A DNA stretch of 64,000 nt. It comes from Schmidtea polychroa. Lineage: Eukaryota. This document shows, piece after piece, positions 13,219 to 60,731 of this stretch. Numbering within the stretch: the stretch's first letter is position 1; each line of letters opens with the position of its first letter. The position numbers were made by a program, and so were the translations under genes. Under the pieces are notes generated by a model. It did no database searches, was not told where the DNA came from, and worked only from the letters and a program-made list of their open reading frames with translations. The stretch covers positions 31,250,001-31,314,000 of the forward strand of contig CM097885.1 of NCBI GenBank assembly GCA_044892525.1, in the 5' to 3' direction.

Positions 13219-13231
13219 AAACATATAAATC

Positions 13232-13726: not shown

Positions 13727-13729
13727 ACA

Positions 13730-13957
13730 ATGGGTGCTAATCCTTCATTACCAGACATTAAATTTAATATTAAATCTTCTTGTTGTAATGGAGAAGATTT
13801 GGACGAACCCGGAAGACGAAGCCGGTTTTGGTGGAGTGGCAAAATTAAGGAAAAGAGTTCCGAATTCGAAAAAGGAAACACAGAAGTGGTTATCAGACCA
13901 GCTTGCGTACAGTTTGAACAAACCAATGCGGAAACGATTCCCAACAAGAGCATATAA
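13730..13957 (+). CDS. Small, putatively N-myristoylated protein overprinting the integrase 5' end
   Basis: ATG lies 3 nt after the previous stop in AAACAATGG context; MGANPS fits MGxxxS; SSCC could be acylated. Confidence 0.5.
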   Translation: MGANPSLPDIKFNIKSSCCNGEDLDEPGRRSRFWWSGKIKEKSSEFEKGNTEVVIRPACVQFEQTNAETIPNKSI

Positions 13958-14843
13958 AACATATGGAATAAATGATTTATGGCAAATGGATTTGATGGAG
14001 ATGATACCCTATTCGAAAATTAACAATGGGTATAAATATATTTTAACATGTATTGATGTATTCAGTCGGTTTGCCCGAGCAATACCCGTCAAGGCAAAAT
14101 CTGCAGATGAAATGTCCAAAGCTGTTAATCATTTATTTAAAGACGGACATCCTAAAAACTTGCAAACTGATTTAGGTATTAATATTATTATTTTTATTAT
14201 TATTATTATTATTTTAGGTAAAGAATTCTACAACAGTAAAGTCAAGCAAATCCTCATTAAATTGAAAATAAACCATTACTCAGTACATTCTCAATACAAA
14301 GCTGCTCATGTTGAAAGATTTAACCGAACTTTGAGAGATAGATTAAAGAAATTATTCGTGCATCAAGGTAATAAAAAATGGGTATTGGTTTTACCAAAAA
14401 TAATAACCAGTTATAATCACTCATCACATCAAGGACTGAATGGATTAAGGCCGATTGATATCACGTCAAAAACAATCTATTCTAAAAAACCTGAAAAAAT
14501 TACAAAACCGAAATATAAAGTAGGTGACCATGTTAGAATTAGTAAAATTAGTGCATCACCATTTATTAAAAATTTCGATACAAATTGGAGTGATGAAGTC
14601 TTTGTAATTTCAAAAATAAATACTAAACAGAATCCTGTAATGTATGTCATCAAAGATAATGATAACAATATTGTACAAGGAAAATTTTATGAGCAGGAAT
14701 TACAAGTTATTCCTCCCCCAAAAGTATTTAGAATTCAGAAGATTTTGAAAACTAAAAATAAAGGCAAGGATAAACAATACTATGTCAAATGGCATGGTTA
14801 TCAAAACCCATCATGGATATCAGAAAAGGATCTAGTAAAGTGA
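13788..14843 (+). CDS. Polinton RVE (DDE) integrase with C-terminal chromodomain-like region; 42-bp intron at 14176-14217
   Basis: LWQMDL, CIDVFSRF, QTDLG|KEF after removing GTATT...TTTAG, AAHVERFNRTL, YKVGDHVRIS, NWSDEVF, YYVKWHGY; likely start MEKIWTNP at 13788. Confidence 0.95.
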   Translation: MEKIWTNPEDEAGFGGVAKLRKRVPNSKKETQKWLSDQLAYSLNKPMRKRFPTRAYKTYGINDLWQMDLMEMIPYSKINNGYKYILTCIDVFSRFARAIPVKAKSADEMSKAVNHLFKDGHPKNLQTDLGINIIIFIIIIIILGKEFYNSKVKQILIKLKINHYSVHSQYKAAHVERFNRTLRDRLKKLFVHQGNKKWVLVLPKIITSYNHSSHQGLNGLRPIDITSKTIYSKKPEKITKPKYKVGDHVRISKISASPFIKNFDTNWSDEVFVISKINTKQNPVMYVIKDNDNNIVQGKFYEQELQVIPPPKVFRIQKILKTKNKGKDKQYYVKWHGYQNPSWISEKDLVK

Positions 14844-15856
14844 ATTTTTATACTATTTTACCAAGCAATAGTTGCCCGCTTATTCATCCAGATAATCAAG
14901 CCAGTAAATTCATGGTCAATCTCCAGAATCCGATTTCTTTAAATGGGGACTGGGAAGTTGCACTGCAAGATTTTACATTCGTGTACAATACATTCCCATT
15001 TTATAGTCAATGTAAGATTGATTTCAAAAGGAATGCTATGAAAACATGTAGTGGTATCTTTATTATCAGTAATTATGATAAAACATATCATATTCCGAAT
15101 CAAATATTAGATCAGCACTGCTCTATGTTTTACAAGGATGGATTAAATATCAGTTGTGATTTTAAACCATTTACAATAACATTCGAATATATTGAAGATG
15201 CCAGACGAATGGGTTGCAATAAGTTGAAAAATGAAGTTATGGAAACAGAATATTTATTACGCTTTGATCTATTTGAAGCAAACAGTGTAATGAGAGAAGA
15301 AATCAAAATATCAGTGTCGTATAATAATGAAGTTGAAGAATCATTCACCTTCGCTGACGAATTATATATTGATAAACTTGATGTGTTACTTAAATATTTA
15401 AAGTATAATTGTTCACACATATTTAAAAGTTTGGACATTGTGAAAGATTTGTTATTTACCTTCAGTTTGAATGATGACATTTGCGAAGTTACATTTGATA
15501 AAAATTTGACAAATACACTTGGATTAGAGAAGCAGCAATATCGGGAAAAATCGGCTGGTATACGTAAACCAAGAATACTTGAACATCATCAACAAATGTT
15601 CATATATACTAATATTATTGAGCCTATAATAGTTGGTGATTCCAGTGTTCCTCTATTGAAATCGGTGTGGATTGGAAAATATGAACATGATGAAGTTGTC
15701 AATATAAATATAGATAATCCCATGTATTTACCAATTTCAAGCTCATGTATAAACAATATAGAAATAAATATTCGTGACGATAGTGGAAAACTTATAAACT
15801 TCCCAAAAGACTCAAAAACTCATTTGACACTACATTTTCGTAAAGTAGATGGCTAA
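14813..15856 (+). CDS. Minor capsid protein (penton)
   Basis: FYTILPSNS..PDN..F...L..PISL.GDWEVAL N-terminus; MFIYTNIIEPIIVGD..VPLL...YLPI...IEINIRD..G...LTLHFRK C-terminus. Start is 14789 or 14813. Confidence 0.88.
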   Translation: MDIRKGSSKVNFYTILPSNSCPLIHPDNQASKFMVNLQNPISLNGDWEVALQDFTFVYNTFPFYSQCKIDFKRNAMKTCSGIFIISNYDKTYHIPNQILDQHCSMFYKDGLNISCDFKPFTITFEYIEDARRMGCNKLKNEVMETEYLLRFDLFEANSVMREEIKISVSYNNEVEESFTFADELYIDKLDVLLKYLKYNCSHIFKSLDIVKDLLFTFSLNDDICEVTFDKNLTNTLGLEKQQYREKSAGIRKPRILEHHQQMFIYTNIIEPIIVGDSSVPLLKSVWIGKYEHDEVVNINIDNPMYLPISSSCINNIEINIRDDSGKLINFPKDSKTHLTLHFRKVDG

Positions 15857-16211
15857 TTCCGATATTATTAGTATGTATAGTGATAGCCAATCTGGTGGTG
15901 AATTACCATATTTTATTGGTAAACAGTATGGATCAGGTTGGTTAAAAACAATAGGGAGATTTGCACTTCCCATTCTTAAACGTATTGGTAGTTTTGGCAT
16001 GAAAACTGCTAAAGATGTGATTATGAATGAACAGAAAATATTACCATCCCTAAAAACAAATGCTTTAGCGGAGTTAGGGAAGGTTCTACCTGGAGTTGCT
16101 GGTATGTTTCAAAAAGATACGCCTCCAGCCCCAGCTCCAAAACGTAAAGGGCATGGAATATCGCGTATAAACAAACGAATGAAAGGACATGGAACTATAT
16201 TTGCAAAATGA
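15849..16211 (+). CDS. Small basic Polinton core-like protein
   Basis: QSGGELPYFIGKQYGSG..IGRFALPILK pattern and basic tail with GxG motifs; lies between the minor and major capsid genes with overlapping start/stop codons. Confidence 0.8.
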   Translation: MANSDIISMYSDSQSGGELPYFIGKQYGSGWLKTIGRFALPILKRIGSFGMKTAKDVIMNEQKILPSLKTNALAELGKVLPGVAGMFQKDTPPAPAPKRKGHGISRINKRMKGHGTIFAK

Positions 16212-17431
16212 TTTGTGGTAAATCCGAATTATGTATATTTGATAGACCATCGCCCCAGGCTGTAATAGAATTTGGTGCCTTTGAGGAAGTTTTTCCTATG
16301 AATTCAATTACTGATAGTAGAAATGATATCGAGTTTTATATTAATGGTTCGCAAACTGAATATTTAGATTTGAACGATACTTTATTGACTGTTCAGATCA
16401 AGGTTGTAGATAAAGATAGAAAGGTTTTGGATGCCAATGCGGATGTATTACCAAACAATTTCATGTTTCATACTCTGTTTAAAGATGCAGTGTTGGGATT
16501 TAATAATATCAAGATTGAGGGTGGAAATAATACATTCATTCACAAGGCTTTGATAGAAACTATTTTAAATTACAATTCAGATACTAAAAATACCTGTCTT
16601 ACACCTATGGGTTATGCAGCAGCAGATGATGAAAGAAAAAAGTGGGTTAAAGGCTCAAAAGTATTCACTATGTGCTCATCATTACAACTTGATTTTATGG
16701 ATCAACCGAAATATTTACTACCGGGAGTTAATATACATATTAGACTGAAAAGATCTGATTCTGCATTGTCTCTTACTAGTGCAACTGGTGCACCAATATG
16801 TCAATTAGTTGATGCAAAATTATTGGTGAGAAGAGTTCGAGTAGACCCGTCAGTATTAGCTGGTCATCAATTGGGGCTTAATTCAAAACATGCAATTTAT
16901 CCTTTAAAAACAAAGGAAATTGTACAATTTGCTATTGCTAAAGGTGCTTCATCATTCTATAAAGAACAAATATTTGGTGACAGAAGAATGCCTAATTTTA
17001 TTCTGGTAACATTTCAAAGTGAAACGCAATATAATGGATCGTATACTGCTTCCAGCTCAATTTTCAAAAATTTTGGTGTTACTTCATTGACTTTATCGAA
17101 AAATACTGATTATAGAGAAACATATACTCAAGATTTCGAGAATGATAATTACTGTGCGACATATATGCAGAGTATTGTTAGAAATCTAGGTTATTTAGAT
17201 AAAAACTTGAATTGTGGAATAACTCTTGAAGAATTTAAAAGCAAATACCCATTTTTCACATTTGTTCTAGCTCCCGATTTTGATTTAAATCAGAGTCAAT
17301 TACCACAAAACGGGAATTTACGACTGGATATAAAGTTTGCAAAGGCCATTACTGAACCAGTACATGTTATAATATATGGAGTATTTGAAAATGAAGTTCA
17401 AATTACTGCAAATAGAACCGTGCTAGTATAA
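16208..17431 (+). CDS. Major capsid protein (double jelly-roll, Polinton PY type)
   Basis: CGKSELCIF..P..Q, IEFYI.G..TEYLDLNDTLL, PNNFMFHTLF, QPKYLLPGV, HAIYP, GNLRLDIKFA, VIIYGVFENEVQITANR. Confidence 0.92.
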   Translation: MICGKSELCIFDRPSPQAVIEFGAFEEVFPMNSITDSRNDIEFYINGSQTEYLDLNDTLLTVQIKVVDKDRKVLDANADVLPNNFMFHTLFKDAVLGFNNIKIEGGNNTFIHKALIETILNYNSDTKNTCLTPMGYAAADDERKKWVKGSKVFTMCSSLQLDFMDQPKYLLPGVNIHIRLKRSDSALSLTSATGAPICQLVDAKLLVRRVRVDPSVLAGHQLGLNSKHAIYPLKTKEIVQFAIAKGASSFYKEQIFGDRRMPNFILVTFQSETQYNGSYTASSSIFKNFGVTSLTLSKNTDYRETYTQDFENDNYCATYMQSIVRNLGYLDKNLNCGITLEEFKSKYPFFTFVLAPDFDLNQSQLPQNGNLRLDIKFAKAITEPVHVIIYGVFENEVQITANRTVLV

Positions 17432-17459
17432 ATGTATACAGAAACACCAAAAAGTTGTC

Positions 17460-17843
17460 ATGGAGTAAGTTTTTCAATACTGTTTAATTTATTAAAGTAG
17501 TTCTGTTCAGGTCAATAGAATTGGAAAACAGATATTGGGAAATGAATTTGTAGGAGTTTTTCCTCTCGATAAAATCCCATATTTGAGCAATAATCAAGCC
17601 ATAATCGTCAATACTCAATCGTCTCATCTTGGTGGAGAACATTGGATTGCTATATATGTGAAACCTAGTAATATATTCGTGTTCGATCCTATGGGTTTCT
17701 ATTACCCTGCTTTGTTGGTATCAAAACTACAAACAATGGGGAAACCTATTGTATATAATAAAACAATGTTTCAAAATCCCTTGACACAAACATGCGGTCA
17801 ACATTGTTTAGCTTGGTTGTTGTATAAAAAATTTGATGATTAA
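17460..17843 (+). CDS. Adenain-like capsid maturation cysteine protease (spliced)
   Basis: FVGVFPLD, IVNT, GEHWIAI (His), FDPMG (Asp), FQ...TCGQHC (Gln/Cys). Donor GTAAGT at 17465; the acceptor at 17500 gives MDSVQVNRIGK from ATG 17460, while ATG 17432 with the acceptor at 17510 is also in frame. Confidence 0.92.
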
Positions 17844-17873
17844 TAAATGTATTTTGTATCCTTTGTTGTTGTT

Positions 17874-17904
<31 letters not shown>

Positions 17905-20900
17905 TTTTATTATTATTATTATTATTATTTGTGATTTTGAAAGATATATCACGTTATAATTGCTATATAATTAGCTGAATCGATGAAGAATTATGATCAA
18001 TCAATATATTTCATCTCTAGTTAGGTATTTGATGATACATGTGGTTAAATATTGATTTTAGTGAATTTTGATCTTTTAGTGGACTCTTTGAATTTAGATA
18101 CTAAATTATTTCAATGGACGGATGTCTGTAACAAATAAATAAAATTCATATTTTGAAGAATTTTCTATGGATTTTAAGAGAATTGATATATTAAAGGTCT
18201 GATATATTATAGCCGGTTGGAATTAGTGAAGGTTCAGTTAAAATGGTAATATATGATTTTTAAGGGGTGTTTAAAATGATAGAAATATTTGGTGAGGAAT
18301 CGGTTATGGTGGAAATGTTTGAAATCTCTATTTAAATCGACAATGTTCTTATTGGTAAAATTTTAAAGGGAAATAGTCAGTATTTAGCTATGAATTAATA
18401 ATAGTTCCTGTGAAATTATATCGTTTTAGAGGTTTATTAGGTTGTGATGAATGTTATTGCACAGTAATTTAGATTTATGTTTTAGAACCAGTTTTTTATT
18501 AATTATCCATTGTTTTATTAAGTCGTTTAGGGTTAATGATCAATTTACTTGGTTTTCACAATGAAATATTTGAAATCTTTAGAATTAATTGGGATTGATA
18601 TCAAAGGTTATTGCTTTAAATTATTTTACTTAAGAAGTTATTTTATTCATTGTGGGGACATCAGTGACAAAACTTGAGAAATATTGACTTAAAAGTTGGA
18701 AATCGACAACGGCTAAAGAAAATTGATCTTTATTGAAGGAATTTTATGATTTTAATTAGAAATTAAATCGGTTGAATATTAAAGGTAAAATCTATTGAAG
18801 GAATATTATTATCGGATGGATAAATGATATTTTGCTAAATTACCTTTGCTAAATATTATTTTAAATGACTAAAAATAACAAAATTAACCAATATTCATAA
18901 ATTTATCGCACAAAATATCCATGTTTTGGTTACTCAAACATCTTAAATTTCTCGCAAAGATATATTACGTCTAATGATCATCTAATTAAATTAGAAAATA
19001 ATTGTTACTTTATATTTCTAACTAATAAGCCCCTTAATTGGATAAATGATAACCATATTTCTATTATGACTCCTTTAAATATTTTTGCCTCAAACAAATT
19101 TACTCCAAATGATAAAGAATTTAAAATTATCAATGAATAATGACCATGTTTTTCTCATATTATTAACTATTGTAACGAACATTAGATGAATAAATTAATT
19201 TTTGCTTTAAATGACTACAAAGTTAACCAATAAATTAGTCGCTCGACATAAGTGTAAAGTTACATTTAAAATATTCACGAATTTCTGATCATCTCACTAA
19301 ATTACCTAAGAATTTCTAAATGATTAATATAGCCTTGCGACATGTTGAATGTGACCAGTACCCTTGCTAGCAATACCCATAGGGGGACAGAATATTTTGT
19401 CGGATAAACTAGGAGTATATGGTCTTTATTGATATATCAAAATACTGTTATTTATAAATCAACTAAAAATACTCAAAAATACTATATTATTTTACTGAAT
19501 GATACCTTAAATGTTTTTAATATACATATTTCTAAAATAAATCAACAGTTCAAACCAACAACATGTATGGATGACCACCCATTGTTAATTTATTCCCAGT
19601 GTCACGTCCCTCAAAAATACCGTGAGTGTTTTAACAAAACTGAGCTCAAAGAAACTTTCCAGATAACAACTCACCTGAATGTTTTGAACAAAAATGAGCG
19701 AAATTGAGAACAAACGATTAGATGGCGATTAACTTCTGGCCACAACCCTAACAACATGAAAATTAAGATTTTAATTATTGAATTCGTTGTTTACTGCCTG
19801 GAAATACTAACAGAATATTTTTTAATTCAAAGAATCTTCATTATAAATTTTGAATTTAAAAAATTAAATGAAGGATATATAAGTGTACATAAAATTATAA
19901 TATTATATAAAATTATACTATATAATAATGTTAATGTTTAAATATGCTTAAATAACTAAATTGTTTAAATATTTTTAAATAACTAAATTAAATTATTTAA
20001 ATTTAAATTATTTAAATATACTTTTGATATAACTTTATTTCTTTCGTTTTAGTATCCATAAAGTAAGTAAATAAAGAATTTACTACAATATTTTAATTAT
20101 TTTACTTAGTAATGAAGAAAATGAATTATATGATTATGAAGAAGATGAACCAGATAAAATGGTGAAACACTAAATGACTTATGTTCTGGATTTAGAAATT
20201 TCTTATTAAAACATGAATTATAGAAAAAAATGAACCAGACAAAATGGTGAAACATTGCTATGTTCCGGATTTCTTAAATGAATTAGCTGATTGTGGGTGT
20301 CCTTCAACATGAATTATCAGACTTAAATTATGTAAACTTTCAACGATTGTCAAGAAAAATGGGAAAAACCGATGTTTTAGCAATTAGATATTGTAAAGTA
20401 CTACCTGAAGAATATTATTATTAATGTAAGACATGAATTAATTCTTTAAAATATATATATTATATTTAGGTATCTGTGTTTTATGGTGGGAAATGACATT
20501 GAAAAAGTATACCACAAATAACAGTTGCCTAATTTATCAAGCCTGTGACGATAAAATGCTAGATAATGTAAGTTAATTGCTTTTAAATCAATATAAATTT
20601 TAGCAATGATAGTTGACGCCGCATCAGAAACTAAGAAATACGTCCAATTTGCAAGATGTATTCCATGAAATCACTATCAAATGGCCTGATGGAGAGATTA
20701 ATTTTGAGATAGATTACCAACAGAAGAGCGAGAAAAATTTGTAAATTAAATATAATAGGGTTGGGTGGGTCCTCTTTATCCCTTAATTAATATATATTTA
20801 CAAGCTGATCGTCGTGGTGGGCGGTTGTAATCCAACTAGTGGGAGGCCTCTGTAAATATATATTTGTGTTAGTGAAAACATTAATTAATTTGGTTATAGT

Positions 20901-21459
20901 GCCAATGACGCATGTATTTTGAAATTATACGTTTCGAATGTGCTGGTAGTTGACTACCCATGCTAGGCGTAATGTTCCGTACGGAAAACTATAATGCCCA
21001 GGTTCTTCTGACCCCACTTGGGGGAGGCACAGACGACCCTTGTGGACGCGAACAAATATCCACCGTGTCTTTCAGGCACAGATATTTGGTCACTGCTCAT
21101 TAGGCCTGGCAATACTAAATGCATACACTTTGCCTTGTCCTCTCTTGTCTTTATTTTTATCGTTTAAATAGTGTGTGTGATAAGTTTTATTTACTAACCC
21201 TAATTAATATACCCTTGCGATATGTTGAATGTGAGTAGTACCCTTGCTACCATTACCCATAGGGGGACAGAATATCTTGTCGGATAGACTAGGAGTATAT
21301 ACACCCATGTTAAACAAGGTATGTGTATATAGAATGTATGTGTAAAATTATCGCTCCTTATTGAAAATTTCATGTAAAGGCAAACACAGAATACTGCAAA
21401 CATATAATAATACTCTACCCCATAACTTAGTGTGTAAAAATTATTTAAGGTTTTTTCAC

Positions 21460-21526
<67 letters not shown>

Positions 21527-22051
21527 GTTTAATGGGTTGTATATGTGTGTAAAAAATATTTGAGGTTTTCACGAATATTGATAATAATAATGGTTTATGA
21601 GTGTTTTTATGTTTTTGACTAATATTTGCAATAATAATAATGGTTAATGGGTTGTGTGTGTGTGTGTGTAGAAAATATTTTAGGTTTTCACTAATATTGA
21701 TAATAATAATTGTTAGTGGGTTGTGTGAGTGTAAATAATATTTTAGGTTTTTGACTAATATTTGCAATAATAATAATAATAATAATAAGTTTAATGAGTT
21801 GTATGTGTGTGTGTAAAAATATTTTAGGTTTTTAATATTGATAATAATAATAATAATGGTTAATGGGTTGTGTGTGTGTGTAAAAAATATTTTAGGTTTT
21901 CACTAATAATGATAATAATAATGGTTAATGAGTTGTGTGTGTGTGTAGAAAATATTTTAGGTTTTTAATATTGATAATAATAATAATGGTTGAGGGGTTG
22001 TGTGTGTGTGTGTGTAAAAAAAAAAAATATTTTAGGTTTTCACTAATAATG

Positions 22052-22104
<53 letters not shown>

Positions 22105-22105
22105 T
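21460..22105 (+). repeat. Degenerate ~60-bp tandem array inside the Polinton
   Basis: Recurring (AAT)n-GGTTAATGGGTTG(TG)n-TAAAAAATATTTTAGGTTTTCACT units, about 9 copies. Confidence 0.85.
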
Positions 22106-22350
22106 CCCGCGCGTGTTAATATCATTCCCAATAATAATGATGATAATAATTTTTATATATCAGTAGATAGATCTCGCACTGGGCCTTAAAATGAGCTATA
22201 GATCAATAAAATCTGTTGGTGGGAACAATAATTTTTGGGATGAAAAAAAGTAGGTCCCCGCTGGATCACTTAATAATATTTTGAAAAATAATAATAATTT
22301 ATGTGTCATCGTATGAGTCATCGAATGAGTCATCGTTCTAAAAATACATG

Positions 22351-22407
<57 letters not shown>

Positions 22408-22600
22408 TTCTTGGGAGTTGTAATAATAATTCTTTGAAAATATCTTAGTCATTATTAATAATACTAATAATACCCTAGCGAGTTGTTGATTGTGAGCAGT
22501 ACCCTGGTGACTTGTTGAATGTGAGTAGTACATTTGTGTGCAGTACCCATAGGGAGACAGAATATCTTGTCGGATAGACTATGAGTATATAATAATTATA

Positions 22601-22602
22601 AT

Positions 22603-22660
<58 letters not shown>

Positions 22661-23953
22661 CTTAGAAACTAAAAACTTAGAAAATAATAATTATTTTAAT
22701 AAATGACCTTGAAAATTAAATGACCTTGAAAATTAAATGACCTTGAAAATTAAATGACCTTGAAAATTAAATGACCTTGAAAATTAAATGACCTTGAAAA
22801 TAAAAAGATTACTTAATTAAAACAAAAAATTAAATTAAAAAAAAAATGACCTTGACCTTGATGAGTCATATGACCTTGGGAATGACCTTGATGAGTCATC
22901 GTTCTAAAAATATTAGACATCGTTGGGTGAGTCATTGGGTGAGTCATTCTCTTTGTTAATATTAATGATGATGATACCTTCTATGGCTCATTCGAAAGGT
23001 CTTGGACTGAGCTTTAAGATGAGGTATCGTCCAATAAATTCGGATAATGGGAACATTAATTTTTGGGATGAAAAAGAGTAGGGGCCCTCCCGGCCAATTA
23101 ATAATATTTTGGAAAATAATAATAATTTAACGTTGAAAAGATGGTGGTCATCAATTGTTAATAACTTTGTCAATAATAATGATGATGATACCTTCTATGA
23201 ATCAATCGAAAGGTCTTGCATTGGGCTTTAAAATGAGCTATCGTTGAATAATTATCGTTGTCGGGAACTCTGTACATTTAAATTTTAAAATATGACCTTG
23301 AAAAAATAAATGACCTTGAAAAAATAAATGACCTTGAAAAAATAAATGACCTTGAAAAAATAAATGACCTTGACCTTGACCTTGAAAATAATATTTTGAA
23401 AAATAAATGACCTTGAAAAATGGTCTCGGTAAAACTTTAATAACTTTGCCGATGTTAATGATGATGATACCTTCTATGGCTCAATTGAAAGGTCTTAGAC
23501 TACGCTTCAAAATAAGCTATCGATTAATAAATTCGGATAATGGCAACATTAATTTTTGGGATGAGAAAAAGTATGTCCCCGCCCGGCCAATTAATAATAT
23601 TTTGAATAATAATAATAATTTAACGTTGAAAAGATGGTGGTCATCAATTGTTAATAACATTAAAACTATTAAGGATATATATGATACCTATAGCTCATTC
23701 GAAAGGTCTTGGACTGAGCTTTAAGATGAGGTATCGTCCAATAAAGTCCGTTGGCGGGAACATTAATTTTTGGGATGAAAAAAAGTAGGAGCCCGCCAGA
23801 TCACTTAATTAAAACAAAAAATTAAATAAAAAAAAAAATAAATGACCTTGACCTTTTATTTTTTAAAAAAAAAATTTTTTCCCGGGGGGGGGGGGGGAGG
23901 GGGTATATGTGATGCGGGGAGCTCCTGATCTGGGGAGCCCCAATCCTACTACT
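22601..23953 (-). repeat. Right terminal inverted repeat (~1.35 kb)
   Basis: Reverse complement of the left TIR; ends ...CCCAATCCTACTACT. Confidence 0.93.
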
Positions 23954-24908: not shown

Positions 24909-27190
24909 CAAGACCGTTCCTGGCGGGGGGAGCAGAAGGTGCCCCCGCACGTGAGCGGCCAAATTGAAGGGCGACCGCCAACCTGTTATTATTATATTTA
25001 AAACAAATTGATTTTAGATAATCTATCAAATAAAGTATACTTAATAAAAGTAAGTTTTACTATTTAGAAAATTTATTATGAATAAGATGTCAGAATTAGA
25101 TGTCAGAAAGAAAAACAAAAAGGAAATCCGGTGCTTATTATCGAAAAAACAAGGAAATAAAAATAACAGAAATAGAAAAACTAAGTGGATCTTTAACACA
25201 GTTTTTGGAATCCTCAGAAATATCATCTGCGGCAAGTACGTCAGAAAGGTTTAATACAGAAATTTATACTGAAGAGCCTAATACATTTCTGGATGTGCTA
25301 GATTCGTCTTCAAGTCCTACAAAGAAGCCAGAACAGCCGCAAGATGACTCATCATCTTCAACATCAGAGTCAGAAAAGTCCGAAGAAGAGTTTTCTTATG
25401 AAACAGAATCAGTAAGTTTGTCTTTAGTGCTGGCAGATCCAGGAACATGGCCTGAATCGATAAATAAACAACTTTTAGAAATTTTAGTGAAGAAAGGACA
25501 TGTGCAACTTCGTGATAATGTTCATTTCCCATCGGATGAGACAAACAGAAGATTTTCTGCAACATATTTTTTTTGAATTTTAGAAAATGGTGAAACAATT
25601 TCCAGAAACTGGATAGTTTACACTACTAAATTAAATATTGTATTTTGTTTTTGCTGCAAACTATTCAGCAAAAATATTATTAAGCTGACCAGTGGTGGAT
25701 ATTCTGATTAGCGACATGCAACAATGTATTTTGTTCAACATGAAAACAGTGTACAACATATCGAATGTTCAAAAAAGTGGTGTGAATTAAAATTGCGGAT
25801 GCAAAAGAACTGCACAATAGATAAAGAGCTTCAAACATATTATGAAATGGAAACAAAATGATGGCGTGGTATTATTGAAAGAATGATAGCTATTGTTCAA
25901 TTTTTATCTGGTTAGTCGCGGCCCATTGACAGAGTTATACAATATAAATAATGGAAATTTCATGAAAACTGTAGAAATGTTAGCTAAATTTGATCTGTTA
26001 ATAACAGAGCATGTAAGAAACGTACAAACGGCAAAACAAAAAAAAGACATATGCCACATTATTTGGGAATCCATTTTCAAAACGAAATCATTGAATTATT
26101 AGCAGCAGCTGTAACAAAGAAATTAACAACCATTATAAAAAATTCAAAATATTTTTCTATTATACTTGATTGCACGTCAGATTTAAGCCATGCCGAACAA
26201 ATCAGGTTTGTTTTTCGGTGTGTGAATTTGACGCAAAATGAAGCAGTATTTTCTTGGTTTTTCTCCATTAGCTGATACGACTGGTGAAGGTTTATTTAAC
26301 TTCCTTACTAACGAATTGTTGCCTAAATTTAGCTTGGATGTACAAAATGTTCGTGGTCAAGGCTATGATAATGGATCCAACATGAGAGGTAAAGATATAG
26401 GACTTCAAAAAAGAATTATAAATAGAAACCGTAGAGCAACTTTTGTACCATGTGCAACACATAACTTCAATTTAGTTCTTAATGATGCTGTTAACATTAA
26501 TAATGAGACCGTTGGATTTTTCGATATTGTTCAGGAATTATTTAATTTTTGTTCTGCCTCTCCATATAGATGGAATATGTTAAAAATCAAAATTAAATTT
26601 TTAACTTTAAAACCCTTAAGTATTACTAGATGGTCGAGTCGTATTAACGCTATAAGACTATTGCACCAAAATATTAAAGAAATTTCTGAAAGTTTAATTA
26701 ATTTAAGAGATGATCAAAGTAGAGATATAAGCACAAGAAATAAGGCACATTCGTTATCTGGAAAATTAAAGTCATTTAAATTTTTATGTTCGTTAATTAT
26801 CTGGCAAGATATACTCTCAAAAATTGACGTGGTTAGCAAAATGCTACAAAATTCCAACATTGACATTAATGAATGCAGTAAAGCGTTGGGTAATTTAAAA
26901 AGATTTTTAAATGAGAAACGAAACGATAGCAGTTTTAATGAATATATAAATGAAGCTACAAACCTTGCACAAGTTATTTATGTAGAAAATGAATTTCCAC
27001 AAACCCGTATAAGAAAAATACCTCGTCAATTTTTAAATGAATCATGTGATGACTTTGTAGAACATCCTAAACAAAACTTTAAAATTAATTTTTATTTTCG
27101 TATTGAATTAAGTTTCTTTTACGGTTTCTTTGAATTGAAATAAAATTTTACCGAATACCATTTTTTTCAATATTTACATGGCGGCAAATG
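24909..27190 (+). pseudogene. hAT-superfamily (ZMYM1-like) transposase pseudogene with GC-rich left end
   Basis: DPGTWP, FCFCCKLF, YFSIILDCTSDLSHAEQ, RGQGYDNGSNMRG, FVPCATHNFNLVL, LKPLSITRWSSR; stops and frameshifts; no right TIR seen. Confidence 0.88.
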
Positions 27191-30756: not shown

Positions 30757-31155
30757 TTAAGTCAATGTGATTTTTGGCACCAGGAGTATCAGTGGGCAAT
30801 GTCTCATAATTAGGGATGTAAGCTGATATATTGTTTTCTTGACGAATGCCATCCGCGATCTTTCCTTATAACATTTATTATTTTGGTCAACTCCTGTATA
30901 TATATCTCTGATCTGTTTGTTGATCAGTAATTCGATCATCACTTCTTGTCTTGAAGTAGGCATTTGTACCACTCTAAAATATTTATCGTACTCTTTTATG
31001 AATGTTTCAACAACATCTCCTCTATGATAATCGTTTGAAAATAGCTTCTTTATGAAGAAATCCATAGATTTGGTGGCCATATTAGAAGCTGCTAACACAT
31101 CTTCTAAATTATTTTTTAAATCCGGTTCAAAAGTTAACGTCATACATAATTCCAA
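30757..31155 (-). mobile_element. Probable retrotransposon gag N-terminal fragment
   Basis: GDVVETFIKEYDKYFRVVQM..RQEVMIELLI resembles Gypsy gag N-termini; 31081-31127 is duplicated at ~29657-29703. Confidence 0.5.
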
Positions 31156-33273
31156 ATATTTATTTAATGAAATATTGTATAATTTTCAAAAAGATTTTCA
31201 GCCTTGAATAAAATATTTTCAAAACCATTTATTAAAATTTCAATATTGTTGGGCTAGAACTGACTTCTAGACCCAAATTTCTAATTTTGACTGAAATGTG
31301 TAAGTACACAGCATGCAAAAAGCAAAAAGTATAGTTAAATATTAAAAACTACACCAAATAAACAATAGTAATTAAAGGAAAAAACAACAAAAACCTAAAC
31401 ACCGAAATTAAATAAAATTATACCAAAAGCAAGAGGTTATACAAAATAGAACTCGAAAATAACCAAATAAACACAGATAAACATAAAACAGACTCGAATA
31501 ACTTAAAAGACGACAAAAACCGAAAAAATTCCAGAAAAACCCAGAACATTCCATAAAAATGGCGATGACCATCATAAAAGCTACCTTAAACAATAAAATT
31601 TAGGAAAAAAAAATTAATTAGTAATAAAAATAAAAAATCTTAAAAAGAAATTCATAAAACATAAGTTAAAATAAAAATTAAATTAAAAGTAATATAGAAT
31701 GTTCTGGAACCGTTCCAAATCCATCATGGACGTAAAATTAACGAAAAATAATTAAAAAATAAAAATTTAAAAATAAAAACAAAAATTATGGCACAAAAAT
31801 TGCCATTAAAAATATCAAAATCGCAAAATAGAAAATTCTGGAATAAAAAGAATTCGAGTTTGTTTTAATGCATCAATACATACACGTGTACAAAATAGGT
31901 ATATATACTGACACGTTTCAGTCAGAATAATCATTATTTTATGCCAAATTTTGAACAAAAACTTTTCCAATCTACATAGTGAGTATATATGATTGAATTT
32001 TTTATTATTATCATGTAGTTATGATTTATTTAAGATTAAAGTAATTCCATATTTGATGTTTTTTTTTTTTAATTTTTTGATGTATGAATGTTCAATGGCG
32101 TACTGGTATTCCTGCGTCGTTGTTCAGTCCTGCATCCAATTTGTTAAAATCCTCATAGTACATGCAAACATGCATTATTTATATTATATTAATCTCTTAT
32201 TATATGGCTCTTTTTGTTCGGGGCAGCCGGAGGTCGAACTACTTCATGGTCCTGCCATGGAGTTAGGTCGAGGAAACCCTCCGTCTGACTCTTCGTATTT
32301 ATTTAAGGTCAGCCGTAAATGGTTGACTTAGCACACAACACTAAGGTTTGTGGAAGTGGTCACAGTGGGGCCATGGAAGCAATATTCTTCCCGACTCATT
32401 GCGTAATATACAATTAAACTCAACACTTAAAATCCTGAACAATAACTCTACACTAAGGTTCTAATTTGAGTAGAGCTCGTACCTAAAATTACACAATTCT
32501 ACACTCACATTAATGTAGCTAGTTGATCCATAATGGTAATTTCAATTATACTTAGACATATGCCGAACTAGATTTTGTAGTAAGGATCTTTGATAAAGTA
32601 ATAGAAATAAGAGAGATATCCGGCATACGTACAGGTATAACTTGATCTAGATATGCTGATTCCGAGTAAAGATAGACATTTTAAATCTAGTTCCCACTTT
32701 AAAATGTTTGTAAATGTGTAGGCTTTTAGTTGTAATATTCTTGTTGTTAACTATAAAACTATAAGTTATAACTAATTACGATAGCTAGGTACAAATCACG
32801 TCGATCCTGAAAATGTAAATTATTAATGGAGAAAGTCTGATCAGAGATAGTAGTAAACAATTTTTCGTATAAAAATCAACTTAGGATTGGTTACAGATAG
32901 GCGATAGACGCGCTAGAACTCTGAAGTTTAATCCACAAATAGGACCAGGAAATCTGTAAGTACTGCGGAAAACAATGTTGATCATAGAAAGGAAGTTGTA
33001 AGAAGTATATTCCGTCGACTAAAAATTTCAAATTATAAAGTATGAAAAAACGAATTACAAAATACAAAAGTACAAATTTTAGATTATAAACTTATAAATT
33101 ATAAGTTAAGCAATTATGACTTATAAAATATGAATGTATAAATTTCAAAATATGAAATTATAATTATAAATTACAAGATTGTAAATCCCTAAATTGAAAA
33201 ATTTAAAATTATAAATCGAAAATTATCAAAGTACAAATTATAAAACATAAATTTATAATTCTAAAACATGGGA

Positions 33274-33760
<487 letters not shown>

Positions 33761-34289
33761 GTTAACTACAAAAAAAATCGATATCCCAATCCGATATCGA
33801 TCACCTGAAAATTTAGAAATTAGCAAATTAAATAAATTACTTGTATGCAGAGCAAACCACTCATAACGAGCACAACCGAAGGAAAGGTAAGCAGACGAAG
33901 AGCTTAGTTCGTTGCTAGCACCTGTCGCCCTAGCGTGCCCGAATTTAGTGGCCTAAAAATGATGATCCAAAAACTTTACATTTTATTCAAGTATAAACTA
34001 AAATTTATAAATAGTAATTAAAATTACCACTTAGGGGTAAAAAATTCTGGAATGTAAATGATTAATTTAAACAAACGGATTTTCGACGAAATTCCTTTTT
34101 AATCTAGTTGATAATGAATGTGATTTTAATCTATTGTTCTTAGGCTTATATGTGTTAGCTGGAAAATAAAGAATTTTCTTTTTCGTTAACGTTGAATTTT
34201 TAAAAAGGGGGGAAAAGGGATAAACAAAATCCCGTGTTTAACTTCGTAACATAATCTGTATAAAGTGACCTGATTGTTACTTTGCAGAA

Positions 34290-34655
34290 ATGTCCTACTC
34301 TGACAGCAGCAGCATCGAAGAAGCCGATCGGCAGACGATCACCCGACTCCGGACCCGGTACATTTGGTACCACATCCATCGGTGGAGTCAGGGACGGGAC
34401 CTGGACTGCACAAATCGAGTGATCCGGAAGGGCCCCGAAGTAGGTGCCCCGGCGTGTGTGAAGGAGGAGCCGGGAAACGACCTTTTACAGGAGGCCCGCG
34501 ACCGAGCGGCCGTCGAGGTGGACGCGGCCCAGATGCGACTGAAGAAACTCGACATGCAAATCCGGGCAATCCGAGAAGGAAAGACTCTGGAGGACCTGGA
34601 GGAGGCCGAGGCGACCCCGCGAAAAAGGGGGAGGCCTCGCAAGTACCCGGCCTAA
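34290..34655 (+). CDS. GC-rich ORF encoding a coiled-coil protein with a C-terminal AT-hook (121 aa), probably repeat-borne
   Basis: Intact ATG-TAA ORF; PRKRGRPRK AT-hook; GTATAAAG ~30 bp upstream; far more GC-rich than its flanks. Confidence 0.55.
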   Translation: MSYSDSSSIEEADRQTITRLRTRYIWYHIHRWSQGRDLDCTNRVIRKGPEVGAPACVKEEPGNDLLQEARDRAAVEVDAAQMRLKKLDMQIRAIREGKTLEDLEEAEATPRKRGRPRKYPA

Positions 34656-35473
34656 CTCGTCCTCAATTCCAACTCGCGATAGACATGAACTTTACTCTGA
34701 ACAAATCTCCTCTGTAATGAATTAATAAGATTTGATTTGATGATGAACTTTACTTTGAAGGAGTTTCTTCTTTAATAAATTATCGTAAAAATGGGTTGGT
34801 CTTCAATAATGATAAAATGCCTTTATAACCAGTACCGAGCTTATCAAGCGAATATCATGGTGTAATAACATAATCTAAGAATATTTCTTTTAGTGTTCAA
34901 ACTATTGGAGAACCTACGGAAGGACAGGGAAGAAGCACAAAAACAGGCCGAGGATCTCCGAGTCCGAGTGGACAGACTCAAGGGACGGTGCCGGGAACTA
35001 GAAAGCACCTGGTTTAGTCCCAGGATATGAAAAAGAAGGTGGCGCAGGTCCTCCAACTGCATACCCAAGCCGCACAGGATCAGATTGAGATCCGGGCCTT
35101 GAAGCTCCAACTCCGCGCGTTAGAAACCGAACGCAATGAACAAGCGGTTCACGGAGCCACAATAAGTCAAATCCGGCCGTTGACGTGGAGTTGACAGCAA
35201 TTTACCCTCCGGCCGCGAAAGATAAGCCCAAAAGGAAGCGGCTGGGACGAAACATCCGGGAAAAGCTAAAGAAGGCCAGATTAGCCGAGTATGAACGACA
35301 AGAAAGGGCGACGCCCACGTAATCCCAGCAATACGAACAGTCATCTGGACTATACGCATTGAATTTTTGGTTGTTTATTGTTATGGTGTAAATACAATTT
35401 AGTTAACAAGTGTTGTATGAGCTGTATTGTCCGCAAATATCGAGTGATTGAGAATTAGCGAGTTGAGATTTTG

Positions 35474-35712
35474 GGAAAACAATTTTGATAAGGGACCTGA
35501 GAAATCGGACACATACCTTCTATCGGTAGTCCGTGAACCCATGGAGTACTCGACAATTATAGTGCCTTGATGCGCTCACTTTTTGCGAGTACTCAACCCT
35601 TGGTACAGTACCAACGTTGATTACTCAACGGGTACCAAGCGGAAACTCTAATGTTGTATTTTGGGTTACGCTGGTAACAGCACTTAATCATTCAACCACC
35701 AGTAACCCACCA
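35474..35712 (+). ncRNA. Candidate structured RNA element, copy A
   Basis: Several stems with compensatory changes relative to copy B (36556-36806, -) and copy C (50965-51153, +). Confidence 0.6.
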
Positions 35713-36555
35713 ATATTTAAAATATATTTAATTAAAAATGATTTACTAATAAAAAGCTTGTTTAATTTTTCAATTTAAAAATTTAAAAATTTCAATTTAA
35801 AAAATTCAATTTAATAATTATTTTAAAAATTATTTTAATCGTCAAATATTTATCATTTAAAATTATCTTAATAAATCATTGAAATATTTAATTCTCAGCT
35901 GAAAACCCCTCACATCAAAGAAAGCACGGACACTTGATCTGGTGATTGTATGTAGAATGTTGAAGATCTTGACCATCATCAGGCTTCACTTTCTTGAATG
36001 TCTGGCATATTTGCTTTATTGATTCTGACTAGATTTATTGATTGGGAAGTTGAATATTTCATTGTTTTTTATATTGAATTTGATTTTGGAAAAAAGAGAG
36101 GATTATTTATACAATGATTTTTAATTTGATTTTAATTTAATTAATTTAATAATATATTTTAAGTTCAATTATTAAATTGATAAAAGTGGGAGTCAGGGGC
36201 ACTACAAATTTCATGTTATGTTGAAATTGAATTTTGTTTAGAAATGTATAAATAAAAGTGAAAGTTGAGATGGATTTATGGAAATAATAACAAAAACTTT
36301 AAGAATTAAAGTCTTATTTTAAATTATATTTTAATCCTCAAAAATTAAATCCTATCCAAAAATATGACTGACAAATATAAATTCACAGTGGAATATATTA
36401 ATGCAGAGATCCAAAGACATCAGTTCAATATTAGTAAGCCTAAGAAGAATTTCACACCAATGAGAAAAGCCCGTAATACTTTCTGTGAAACATATTCAAA
36501 TAATGAATTTTTTGAAATTACATCTTCATCTCGGATGTTAAATGAAATATTAATA

Positions 36556-36806
36556 GTGGTGGGTTACAGGTAAGTATAGATTTTACCTTTTCGAGCTGTT
36601 TCCAGTGTAACCCAGAATACAATGATCTGTATTTTTGCTTGATATCCATTGAGTGATCAATGTTGGTACTATATCAAGTAGGTGAGTAATCGCAGAAAGT
36701 GAGCGCCTTATCTACACTATAACTGTCAAGCACTCGTTGGGTTCACGGACTGCCGATAGAAGGCTTATATCCGATTTTGCCTGGTCCCTTTATTAGATTG
36801 TTTTCC
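36556..36806 (-). ncRNA. Candidate structured RNA element, copy B (inverted relative to A)
   Basis: Colinear diverged homologue of 35474-35712 that preserves the stems. Confidence 0.6.
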
Positions 36807-37547
36807 AACGCCATGACTCTTTCATCACGCTCATCACATACACACTACCATTATAAGTTCGTGCATATGCACACACATAATCATGGGTGACTATCTGGTG
36901 GGAACTAATATCTACTTATTAAAATATAACACATATTCATATCAGGCCAGTTCCCTAGCAGACACAGATATGATATATGAAATAATATATAACATTAATA
37001 TACCAAATTAAAATTAAATTTAGCAGCATATATTAATAATTACTAATAAAAATGAAAGTGTTAAAATTAGGGTTGATGGGTAATAATATGTAGTAATTAT
37101 TAGGAGTAAAATTAATGGATAGGAACGAGGGCCCTCATATGAAAGATCTATTAGATTTGGTAAGTAGTTCCCAAAAAAAATTTTCCAATCAACTATTAAT
37201 AATAAATAAAACAATAGCATTAAAAAATAATAATCACTTCAATAAAATTATTAGGCACATAGTAGATATAAAGTGGAAAATAATAATTGTATCGATAAAA
37301 TTTATCTTGTTTATGGAAAATATGCCAACAATAGTTTAAAATTAAATTTAACTTATTTTTTAAAATATTACTTATAAATTATGTCTTAAACAGTCATAAA
37401 AAGGATATATTTAAAAATAACTATTAATTAATCTTCTTTTTCAATTTAAATTTCAAAAATTGTAATTAATATGTAAAAAATTAAGATATGTGGAATTTGT
37501 TTAAATTTAGCCTTTCTATTTATACATTTAATTTGTTATTTGAATTT

Positions 37548-40500
37548 ATGGCGTTATTTAGAACTACTAATATGATTAATATATTACGTAAAAATATATG
37601 CACAACTGCAATATTGTCTGAATTTCAATACAAAAAGTTAGACTTGCAAGAACTTAGAAAATTTGCATTTTCAGATCCAAATTGTGGAAAAGAAGGTTTT
37701 AAATCATTTCAATGAAATCCTTTCATATTAAAATACAGTTAGTGAACATATTGTATTACCCGATGGGTTGGGAGAAGCAGTAGGCAAGCGTCGATATGAA
37801 TTATTGGCAGAATTGTATGGAGAAGTAAGAAAGTATTTATTCGTTTAGGTAATACTTGTATCAGAAAGCTTGGTCCGAAGAAACTCAAAAAATTCGACCT
37901 GGATCTACTTTAGAAAATCCGAATTATATTGCAAGTAACAATTGGCGAAGACAGTTCGTTTGCACATGTAATTTTAATTAAAATTTAAGTCTATTAAAAT
38001 AATATTTCAAACATTTCCATTTAACAATTATAATTTTATTACTCAATTCTTAAGATAAAATTTAAAATTTTACAATAATACCAAATTCTTAAAGTCTCTA
38101 AACCTCAATGGAAACATATGGGGATACTGAAATAAGTCAGAGTTTATCATAAGATCCATCAAACTTTAATTTTTTAAATATATTATTTATGATTAAGAAA
38201 GGGGGATTTATAAAAATATAAAAAGAAATAGAAGGTTAATGTGTAAAATGTGCAAGATGTCTCTTTTATAAGAGGCGACCTTAATTGATATACTTTAATT
38301 CAAAAGTTATAATGATTAATTAGAAATTGATGCATTTTCAGATACTTATTATTAATTACAGAAATCAAAGAACCAAATTTATCATTCTTAAGACATTTTG
38401 TTATTAGTTTGTCATGTTGTAATAGTCCATTTTCAATTGAAGATCAATTCTTTAAAATTTGATGTATTTATTGATCTAGTTTCTTGTTGGGAATGGTTTT
38501 CTTTACAGTTGTCATGGTAAAAAATAATTTAATTCCTGACTCTATTTTTCCTAATTCCTAGACAGGTTTCTATCTGACAGAGATACTTTGATCTATGAAG
38601 TTTCAATTTGAAGGAAACTTGTCGGGTTGGATGGGATAGGAAATTCTGGAGTCCATTTTGAATGCCTGCTTGTCTATTTCTTGATTTTTACGTTCCCATT
38701 ACGTCGTCCATGTGTAATTATTCATTTGCTATTATTATGAAGTTTCCATCTCGTTAACGAGTTCATTTCGTTTTCGAATATCTCTAATTAAATGATCTGT
38801 TGGGATTAATGGTTAAAGGCACAAAATAAAACAGAAGCATAATAAAAATTAAAAAAGACCCACAAAAATGACAAAAATACTAAATTAATTAAAAAATTTA
38901 TTAAATGTAAAAATTAATATCGATCAGGTAAAATAATAGAAATAATAAAAATTAAGCGAGTGTTCCCTAGAAAAAGTTATAATAAAATAACTAAAAATAT
39001 TAATTAATCGCCAATGGAAAGCCCGAATCAATGGGAAACCCGAACGATGAGAAAATACCGGAGCGCATTGAGACCTGGCTAATATGAAGTTGAAGCGAAC
39101 TCGACCGAGCACCAATTAGGAATAAAATTTGTAGAATTACAATAATCCCTCCCAGAAGATTGAAAATAACGCTGATCCAATATAGGATAATGTCTTTCAG
39201 AAAAGTATAAAAGGAAAAGCTGAAAAAAAGACAAATTGTCTGTTGATCGAAGAACCAATATCAGAGGGCGTTTACGAAAGAAAAAAATCCAAGTAAACCT
39301 AGAGAGAATTATAAATTATCGTATCAGAAAAGATAATTGCCCTTTGGACAACCTAAAGTCCAAATCGAGTGACTAATTGTAATTGTGATAAAGATTGAAT
39401 GCAGTTGTTTTATGTTTCGTTAAGAATTCTTTATTCAACGTTCATTATATTCTTGGTAATATCTAGTGAAAAATTCATTCCATTAGTTACATTAGCTTAT
39501 AATCTCCTTTCCAAAGCTTGATAAATTCCTATTTGATTACTCAAGTAATTATTCTCTTTATTTATAGAATTCCTCAATTTGAATTACAACTTCAATCTAT
39601 CAGGTTGAAATATACGCTTTACACAACTTGCCATTATGTAAATATATCGATGTCCAGAAATTGGTACAGTTGATTTATTGTTTCTCACAGTTTCCAAATG
39701 ATATCATCATTCTTTCTCATTGCATTTTTCATAATTTATAATTTCTGTCATCGATTGACTACTTTATTAAACACAATTAAAAAAAAATCTTTAATATTTA
39801 CATCTCTCGATATCTTTACATCTTATGTTAAAATCAATAAAATATTTGAAATTCAACAAAATATTTCACAAAACTTATATATATATAATAGAAATCACTT
39901 CGTTTATATAAAATTATAATTGTCGCTTCATTTAAACAAAATATTAAAAGCCACTTCATTTAAACAATATCAAAAATCACTTCCAATAAACAAAATATTA
40001 AAAACCACTTCATTTAAACAAATATTAGAAACCACTTCATTTAAACAAAATATTTTAAACCACTTCACTTAAACAAATTTTAAAACATCCATATTCCTGG
40101 ATAAACATTACTAGTTCATTTGACCAAAATTTTGAAAACCAATCCATTTAAACAAATATTAGAAACTACTTCATTTAAAAAAATATTGAAAACCAATCCA
40201 TTTAAACAAATAAAGAAACCACTCCATTTAAACAAAATACTAGAAACCACTTCATTTAAACAAAATATTTAAAACCACTTCATTTAAACAAAATATTGAA
40301 AACCAATCCATTTAAACAAAATATTAAAAGTCACTTCATTTAAACAAATATTAGAAACCACTTCATTTAAACAAAATATTTAAAACCACTTCACTTAAAC
40401 AAATTTTAAAACATCCATATTCCTGGATAAACATTACGAGTTCATTTGACCAAAATTTTGAAAACCAATCCATTTAAACAAATAAAAAAACCACTCCATT

Positions 40501-41345
40501 TAAACAAAATACTAGAAACAACTTAATTTAAACAAAATATTAAAAGCCACTTCATTTAAACAAATTTTAAAACATCCATATTGATATCTATATTACTGGA
40601 CAAACATTCAAACAAAATTTTAAAAATAATTTGATCTAACAAAATATAAAAAATCTCCATAAAATTATATCTAATATCTAATATAAACTACAGTAATACG
40701 CCGCACTTACGTACACTTTGGGACCGGAGCGTGTACGTAAAACAAAAATGTACGTAAAATGAATCTACTGCTTTTATTAATGAATAATATGTTTGAAATA
40801 AACTAAAACAATAAACATATAAATAAAAAGAAAAAGAGGGATATTATGCATGTAGTTTTATACTTTTATTTTAGTGTACGTAAAACGGGGTATTACTGTA
40901 GTTAATATAAATTATATATCTTAATCTATCGCTAAAATATCGAAATTTTCGATATTTTGAATTCATAAATTGGTACCAATATCAATCACATATATTTCCA
41001 GGTTTTGAGCATATCAATTGCTCCTTCGTACATATGCTTCACAAAGGCATGCCAATGCGCTGCCAATGTGGGCATTGGTTCAAATTAGTATCATTTGATG
41101 AATATTATGCCATCATTAATACGGCAAGAGAAAAGCGGTATGGCGAAATTAAAGATTCGGCAGAATTTATAGCGCTTGAATCGGAATTGAAACGATGTCA
41201 GGATGAATTCAATGAATTATCATTCAGTGGCAAAGCGGTCAGTGAGTTATCACCGGAGGCACGTGAAATAATGGGTAAGATGAAGGCGGCCTGGGCAGGT
41301 ATAATTAAAACAAGGAAACAAATCGAGCATATGCTGGATAATTAG
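37548..41345 (+). CDS. COX5B: Cytochrome c oxidase subunit 5B-like; exons 37548-37695, 37739-37824, 37865-37967, 41002-41345
   Basis: Transit-peptide-like N-terminus; LPDGLGEAVGKRRYELLA; GSTLENPNYIASNNWRRQFVCTC; LHKGMPMRCQCGHWFKLV with four Zn-ligand Cys; all introns GT-AG and phase-consistent. Confidence 0.88.
39925..40620. repeat. ~29-30-bp minisatellite (AAACCACTTCATTTAAACAAAATATT) in COX5B intron 3
   Basis: About 20 tandem copies, with a higher-order duplicated interruption CATCCATATTCCTGGATAAACATTAC. Confidence 0.9.
40691..40898. mobile_element. Tc1/mariner (pogo-like) MITE
   Basis: TA|CAGTAATACGCCGCACTTACGTACACT...AGTGTACGTAAAACGGGGTATTACTG|TA. Confidence 0.85.

Positions 41346-47703: not shown

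Positions 47704-60731
<13,028 letters not shown>

Follow-up and report, generated by a model that had tools for sequence, protein, structure and literature searches.

A compensatorily conserved four-domain RNA fold at the LTR end of Burro-type elements in Schmidtea polychroa, a likely U5 leader beside a tRNA-Pro primer site

A 64,000-nt stretch of the genome of Schmidtea polychroa (hereafter the window) contains two diverged, oppositely oriented copies, A and B, of a repeat in which substitutions on one side of several stems appear to be matched on the other. From these and a third copy, the original prediction was that selection acts on an RNA structure carried by a large retroelement, for example an IRES, a packaging or export signal, a ribozyme or a non-coding RNA, and an analysis of covariation among genomic copies and a search of Rfam were proposed as checks. 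The locus raises the questions of whether base pairing is maintained across the genome, what kind of element bears the repeat and what the repeat is likely to do.

The dispersed repeat of about 240 nt is present as described: in the alignment made within the window, copies A and B (the latter starting at 36556 or 36557) share 73.8% identity over 271 columns (E 2.6e-40) with all of the listed substitutions, and an nhmmer profile search of the window returned exactly three copies, of which the third, C, is partial and comprises domains 3 and 4 only (Table 1). Folded alone against shuffles, A and B have z values of -2.9 and -2.4, respectively. The inverted arrangement of A and B is incidental, the two being separate insertions. 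Judged by homology, copies B and C are decayed or truncated LTR ends of other lineages, for which an LTR start and a TSD were looked for and neither was found. Being solo or truncated LTRs without a primer site, all three copies would be relics of the function proposed below.

The window holds several further features apart from the repeat. At 9276-23953 lies an element with terminal inverted repeats of about 1.4 kb and ORFs resembling integrase, packaging ATPase, capsid and cysteine protease, which we take to be Maverick/Polinton-like; exons with kinase motifs on the minus strand at 52700-59300 presumably belong to a gene like that of the protein kinase A catalytic subunit. The regions 417-3711, 25100-27143 and 39851-40653 presumably contain decayed gypsy-like pol and pieces of hAT-like transposase, and a 27-28-bp tandem repeat is found among them.

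Copy A forms the 3' end, and the repeat the last 240 nt, of a 4,466-bp solo LTR. The same termini occur as pairs in two full elements, G000:C1:213400517-213432409 (31.9 kb, TSD ACAG) and C2:79963885-80006414 (TSD AAAA), the window LTR thus also flanking elements of about 32 kb. A solo LTR of the copy-B group (L228, 4,182 bp) has the same start bases and the TSD CTAT; TSDs of 4 bp accompany all four insertions for which both ends were recovered, namely the window solo LTR, the two full elements and L228. The flanks of the window LTR (31079-31246 and 35713-35916) form one joined repeat at two other loci (L095 and L234), and the LTR was therefore inserted into an older repeat. These termini and TSDs and the elements of about 32 kb bear out carriage by a large retroelement. 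The ORFs of the elements encode a Gag zinc knuckle, MATH, a Monjiviricetes-type fusion glycoprotein, PR-RT-RH-IN, ankyrin, a TRAF zinc finger and BIR-RING, with a Pfam family assigned to 14 of 22 element proteins. In two elements the Pfam order is PF00098, PF24664, PF00077, PF00078, PF17917, PF00665, the fusion glycoprotein lying between gag and pol, and the cargo domains MATH (PF22486), BIR (PF00653) and ankyrin (PF12796) are present as well.

This layout matches the one described for Burro/GYPSM1, giant gypsy-like LTR retrotransposons of planarians, in the accessible part of PMC6431247: like those, the elements exceed 30 kb and have long LTRs, a gag-pol fusion glycoprotein, MATH, ankyrin and BIR-RING. 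By the described domain set and order, the length above 30 kb and the long LTRs, the element is assigned as a Burro-type giant gypsy element. The same part of PMC6431247 has nothing on LTR RNA structure, primer tRNA, spacer or plus-strand primer.

The LTR itself contains splice-like sites, which suggest a transcription start near 33.8 kb and hence a long R region, and two coding-like blocks. The intact one, an ORF of 121 aa, has no Pfam match. The basic motif at its end is presumably AT-hook-like.

Table 1. Features of the solo LTR, the three module copies and the proposed fold, in window coordinates
Feature	Position	Strand	Basis or remark
Solo LTR of Burro-type giant gypsy element, 4,466 bp, TG...CA, 4-bp TSD ATAT	31247..35712	+	termini, TSD
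Putative intron in LTR, donor-like site near 33887, acceptor-like site just before ATG at 34290	33880..34289	+	read from sequence
121-aa ORF inside LTR, basic motif at end	34290..34655	+	sequence; block about 80% kept between lineages
Second coding-like block, Arg/Lys-rich end, not intact here	34889..35321	+	71-74% between lineages; no ORF of at least 100 aa listed
Candidate poly(A) signal variant AATACA, 322 nt from LTR end	35391..35396	+	sequence; AATAAA in other lineages
Copy A, conserved structured module, predicted U5	35474..35712	+	sequence alignment, covariation
Unpaired GGGACC, complementary to tRNA-Pro variable loop	35492..35497	+	GGGAC in 63/65 primer-site-bearing copies
Domain 1, 5-bp stem and 3-bp stem, conserved 7-nt loop	35506..35533	+	inner stem, 3/3 pairs with double changes
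Unpaired GAACCC, complementary to tRNA-Pro T arm and to terminal-helix 5' arm	35535..35540	+	114/157 copies
Domain 2, 9-bp stem, conserved internal loop, 5-7-bp apical stem	35544..35594	+	double changes in 5/9 and 2/5 pairs
Domain 3, 8-bp stem, conserved 8-nt bulge, 6-bp apical stem	35599..35639	+	double changes in 6/8 and 2/6 pairs
Domain 4, terminal helix and GNRA hairpin; helix 3' arm is LTR terminus	35654..35712	+	terminal helix, 0/8 double changes
Copy B (36557-36806) and adjoining remnant of 5'-truncated LTR, other lineage	36557..37320	-	homology to L223/L224 up to 37320
Copy C (51023-51155) and upstream LTR remnant of old lineage	50462..51155	+	homology

First-look candidates in the 781-Mb genome numbered 2,500 for A, 2,234 for B and 773 for C, counts that are lower bounds since 40 of each were scored. 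Among 30 A-type loci scored, conservation rises sharply at the 5' start of the repeat (the module, in what follows), similarity extends far upstream and, in the other direction, stops at a shared CCA end or no more than about 45 nt from it, and in three of them an 8-nt spacer and a primer-binding site continue past the CCA end. A profile search of all genome loci collected gave 201 matches, 168 of them distinct, and after 11 partial copies had been dropped, 157 near-full-length copies remained, which form 64 clusters at 92%. A scan with a 19-nt motif for homologues outside the S. polychroa genome yielded 21 metagenome loci and one viral locus, none of which holds the module, and these 22 pattern loci were set aside as chance matches. 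Some loci are composite: one (L230, 6592-7088) has two modules of different lineages head to tail, in another (L044) the final 40 nt of the module are duplicated, and in a third (L226, 5215-7460) one LTR is nested within the (TA)n tract of a second. The idea that tandem modules mark transcription starts was rejected, as the two-module locus L226 is such a nested insertion.

Because dead copies decay at random, letters absent from all four nearest neighbours were masked before analysis (1,357 of 40,416 cells). Of the 53 pairs in the structure examined, 32 lack a second state shared by at least five copies, 16 vary in both columns and five in one. Across the 157 masked copies, 14 of the 16 two-sided variable pairs are kept canonical by double change, compared with 134 of 1,726 background pairs (the other column pairs whose commonest state is canonical) and with none in six slid controls; the pairs variable in one column are kept at a rate (3/5 against 1,554/4,435) that does not differ significantly from background, and p-values from these comparisons are optimistic, since the helices were chosen after viewing the same copies. 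A second set, left unmasked, was assembled by hand from the 75 clusters formed at 95% and comprised 40 natural copies: A, B, 20 of the 22 multi-copy or primer-site clusters and 18 other singletons. Here 94.2% of cells are paired and double changes are seen at 21 of 52 pairs, a result that 500 shuffles never equalled; slid controls reached 30-37%. Unaided, RNAalifold predicted 36 pairs, 20 of them with double changes; it missed the GNRA hairpin and the apical stem of domain 3 but recovered the terminal helix and the rest of domains 1-3. The non-Watson-Crick states at the lineage level comprise 14 G-U, three A-C and one other, and this excess of G-U favours sense-strand RNA, as the minus strand would read the G-U states as mismatches. 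An unsupervised G-test/APC ranking is dominated by ancestry rather than by helix pairs; on the tree, most pairs have one or two joint changes and few have more, and the copies are all from a single genome. On the strength of base pairs kept by compensating changes across diverged lineages in domains 1-3, we regard the module as a real RNA structure under selection, and in this respect the proposed covariation analysis upholds the original prediction.

The individual substitutions on which that prediction had relied fared unequally over the 157 copies. Three are compensations at the lineage level: the A-T/G-C change in the small hairpin (GC 68, AT 58, GT 25), the G-C/A-T change in the CTTGGTAC helix (AT 95, GC 46, GT 9) and, real but rarer, the G-C/A-T change in CGTTGA/TCAACG (GC 131, GT 7, AT 6). 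Two are rare: the G-U form CGGAT/GTCCG is indeed present but limited to nine copies, and the second supposed pair in CTTGATAT/ATATCAAG changes in only two. The outer T-A of TACC/GGTA is not a pair at all, TA being found in nine copies and mostly mismatches elsewhere. The GNRA loop holds up, with GAAA in 99 copies, GTAA in 42 and GAGA in two (GTAG in five). The enclosing TGGGTTAC/GTAACCCA helix, said to be invariant, nearly is, but with no double change in its eight pairs it provides no covariation evidence, and its 3' arm is the LTR terminus, which in the available text of PMC3601003 is the integrase site.

Single-stranded elements of the fold are also conserved. The loop of domain 1 reads TTCTATC in 104/157 copies and TTCTAAC in 30/157, and the bulge of domain 3 reads AGTACCAA in 108/157 and AGTTCCAA in 19/157. 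In domain 4, the segment TTGTA (35654-35658) can lengthen the terminal helix in a 5' LTR only, where the 8-nt spacer comes next; the extension into the spacer was predicted in all four natural leaders folded, and at one position of it 11 of 65 copies have C.A instead of a pair. The start of the LTR mirrors the 3' arm of the terminal helix. The module alignment gave no covariation support for a pseudoknot or a long-range helix. The column pair 35-65 co-varies, but along one deep split only, and inspection of the module loops revealed no conserved dimerisation palindromes. Domain 4 has what we take to be a resemblance to group II intron domain V; this reading was dropped, there being no catalytic triad.

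Where does this fold lie in the transcript? Among 26 primer-site-bearing representatives, mean identity is 79% in the module, 56% in the 300 nt upstream and 66% downstream, and the module is common to lineages whose upstream LTR does not align; its divergence tracks neither that of the downstream leader nor that of the upstream LTR (rho 0.25 each). Measured from the LTR end, AATAAA is found at 300-350 nt in 27 of the 64 clusters and at 350-400 nt in 12; it occurs in 10/64 and 8/64 clusters at 200-300 nt, which is the 5' edge of the module, and in 0-2/64 in the last 200 nt and at 400-500 nt. The peak is located past the stop of the last LTR ORF; lineage A has the variant hexamer only. Since AATAAA clusters upstream of the module, the latter is probably U5, with a predicted location after the poly(A) site.

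Immediately beyond the module, exact junctions of LTR end, spacer and primer site number 276 (68 and 208 for two end variants), with none for reversed controls; a TT variant of the LTR-end pattern added three new junctions only. The spacer is 8 nt long in nearly all junctions listed. Four such junctions lie 15.8 kb apart at G000:C1:39.42-39.47 Mb, in either a tandem array of partial elements or an assembly artefact. The primer site is complementary to a host tRNA-Pro(UGG) gene, the match comprising 18 nt common to the lineages and 23 nt in lineage A. A tandem array of tRNA-Pro(UGG) with a 475-bp unit is present at G000:C1:130.90-130.95 Mb (L110), and the 3' part of this tRNA has 1,555 exact matches genome-wide. 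As far as complementarity can tell, the tRNA-Pro(UGG) of this array is the primer tRNA of these elements. The unpaired motifs GGGACC and GAACCC are complementary to it as well, with a joint chance probability of about 0.04, which is weak; both motifs have intramolecular partners, there is no lineage with an alternative primer, and for GAACCC, pairing with the T arm and pairing with the terminal helix are not separable by covariation.

The position at the LTR end, the adjacency of spacer and primer site, the match to a tRNA-Pro gene and the covariation in domains 1-3 are observed, and together they form the basis for a functional proposal that we consider likely: the 3'-terminal 240 nt of the Burro LTR form four domains in the genomic RNA, as a U5 leader displaying the neighbouring tRNA-Pro primer site for reverse transcriptase (RT) priming and RNA packaging. 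If it does lie after the poly(A) site, the module would occur a single time in the genomic RNA, at its 5' end, where RT would copy it first. The terminal helix may act like the U5-IR stem of retroviruses, the unpaired GGGACC and GAACCC may contact the variable loop and T arm of the primer, and the conserved loops may bind Gag/nucleocapsid or RT. Among the functions originally offered, a cis signal of the priming or packaging type fits an LTR end beside a tRNA primer site; IRES, ribozyme and stand-alone non-coding RNA found no support.

The fold might instead serve RNA processing or export, by governing use of the upstream poly(A) site in the 5' versus the 3' LTR or by Rev/RRE-like binding of a basic LTR protein, functions that are compatible with a U5 leader for priming and packaging. 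The module does lie just downstream of both the AATAAA peak and the Arg/Lys-rich LTR ORFs, its terminal-helix extension can form only in the 5' LTR, and its large conserved internal loops resemble protein sites. However, transcripts of both LTRs would, before cleavage, hold nearly all of the module, the hexamer is outside any conserved hairpin, and the LTR ORFs diverge to 71-81% or beyond alignment whereas the loops stay fixed, so that we hold this account to be rather unlikely. Somewhat more improbable is a constraint on DNA, be it the integrase attachment site together with hairpins in single-stranded minus strong-stop DNA or hairpin-templated repair without selection. The terminal helix has the LTR terminus as its 3' arm, a sequence mirrored at the LTR start, which would by itself explain the invariance of this helix, and the double change seen in two of 157 copies is nearly private to copy B; the bias of the sense strand to G-U over A-C, with mismatches on the minus strand, and the conservation of unpaired loops and of the GNRA class speak against it.

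A new self-cleaving ribozyme in the LTR would accord with a multi-helix fold, near-invariant loops and a GNRA tetraloop able to dock. The Rfam search gave no match, either for the whole window at gathering score or for 35300-36950 at E up to 10, the hammerhead core CUGANGA is absent from both strands of A and B with their flanks, there is no covarying pseudoknot, and in a standard LTR cycle cleavage would be expected to part R from the primer site and block strand transfer; a ribozyme is thus very unlikely. An IRES driving the internal ORFs has the appeal that, with ORFs upstream in the LTR, those downstream need a bypass, and the module is of IRES-like size. It is hard to reconcile with the leader that follows, in which some 670-800 nt separate the LTR end from the first conserved ORF (160 aa) in most primer-site loci (L113-L142); this stretch is ATG-rich, with 20-35 ATGs in its first 670 nt in the four lineages counted. 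No Rfam IRES was matched either, and we judge this function highly improbable. An independent dispersed non-coding RNA or SINE-like unit would account for the sharp rise of conservation at the module's 5' start and for occasional tandem modules, but TSDs flank whole LTRs of 4.2-4.5 kb rather than a 240-nt unit, the 276 junction copies continue directly into spacer and primer site, and the two-module locus L226 is explained by nesting in a (TA)n tract. We find this last notion scarcely credible.

The other end of the elements is unusual as well. The 3' LTR is preceded, at 405 exact junctions, by a GC-rich motif complementary to the primer site and by a matching 8-nt spacer, and the same motif precedes all four internal LTR starts that were found independently of it. 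A polypurine tract before the 3' LTR was not seen in any of 20 junctions fetched, which had been selected by the motif, the longest purine run in the 60 nt upstream being 3-5 nt. About 110 nt before the 3' LTR (L236-L255, G000:C1 junctions) are conserved across lineages and contain two small hairpins, a U-tract and, at the end, the GC-rich motif. For six elements, the predicted duplex of the 5' piece, comprising the U5 end and primer site, with the 3' motif of the same element has an energy of -27 to -33 kcal/mol versus -15 +/- 3 for shuffles; part of this duplex is the terminal inverted repeat of the LTR. As the pairing is invariant, covariation cannot confirm it. The primer site would pair with the complementary motif before the 3' LTR, keeping the RNA closed as a circle until the tRNA displaces the motif. 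More tentatively, and with a probability that we place well short of even, Burro may follow an undescribed variant of the LTR cycle without a polypurine tract, in which a mimic of the tRNA 3' end circularises the RNA of about 30 kb via the primer site and then becomes the plus-strand primer, 8-nt extensions of the cDNA are trimmed by integrase, and the four-domain U5 switches between a closed (anti-PBS) and a primed (tRNA-Pro) state.

Several of these features have counterparts in known systems. U5 contacts with the primer tRNA are described for avian sarcoma virus (U5-TpsiC) and HIV-1 (PAS) in the accessible part of PMC3185550, and that of PMC3601003 offers a precedent in the retroviral U5-IR loop. 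As far as those excerpts go, the Burro-type module is like retroviral U5/PBS leaders in being a folded segment, probably U5, that adjoins an 18-nt primer site, and like the U5-IR stem in having a helix at its end predicted to take in LTR-adjacent bases; in its short motifs complementary to the T arm of the primer it may be comparable to U5-TpsiC/PAS. Unlike retroviral leaders, it has no sequence or Rfam likeness, spreads four domains over 240 nt and is separated from the primer site by an invariant 8-nt spacer after CA. The retroviral spacer between CA and primer site is usually 2-3 nt. In the yeast elements, cyclisation of Ty1 involves CYC5/CYC3, the primer-site region being complementary to the 3' end of the genomic RNA (PMC3592414, available text), and Ty3 has a bipartite primer site and a purine-rich plus-strand primer (PMC5371799, available text). 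Within these descriptions, the Burro-type elements resemble Ty1 in their predicted long-range complementarity between primer-site region and RNA 3' end, and differ from Ty1 and Ty3 in that it is the primer site itself to which the predicted 3' partner is complementary, and in that this partner stands where the polypurine tract would be; where Ty3 and retroviruses have a purine-rich primer, there is a GC-rich motif.

Literature searches on Burro, planarian LTR RNA structure, primer site and atypical polypurine tract did not turn up the module fold; the original Burro paper of 2018, which was outside the search, may give the primer site or the 3' junction, and PMC11410931 and PMC8532177, in the text available, mention Burro without LTR structure, the latter describing a rise of Burro RNA in animals depleted of PIWI. 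The element family and structured U5 leaders as a kind are known already; the fold itself is absent from Rfam and from the literature searched. A structure of this kind is expected at such an LTR position, which limits the surprise. Cis-acting RNA structures have been mapped for a few retroviruses and for yeast Ty elements, and none was found in the literature searched for the giant env-bearing elements of planarians, for which a single genome has supplied enough diverged lineages for the fold to be read by covariation. The outcome is a model of the Rfam type, a marker of the U5 end for all Burro lineages and a set of testable sites. If confirmed, the missing polypurine tract and the symmetric 8-nt spacers would point to unusual priming and integration in these elements.
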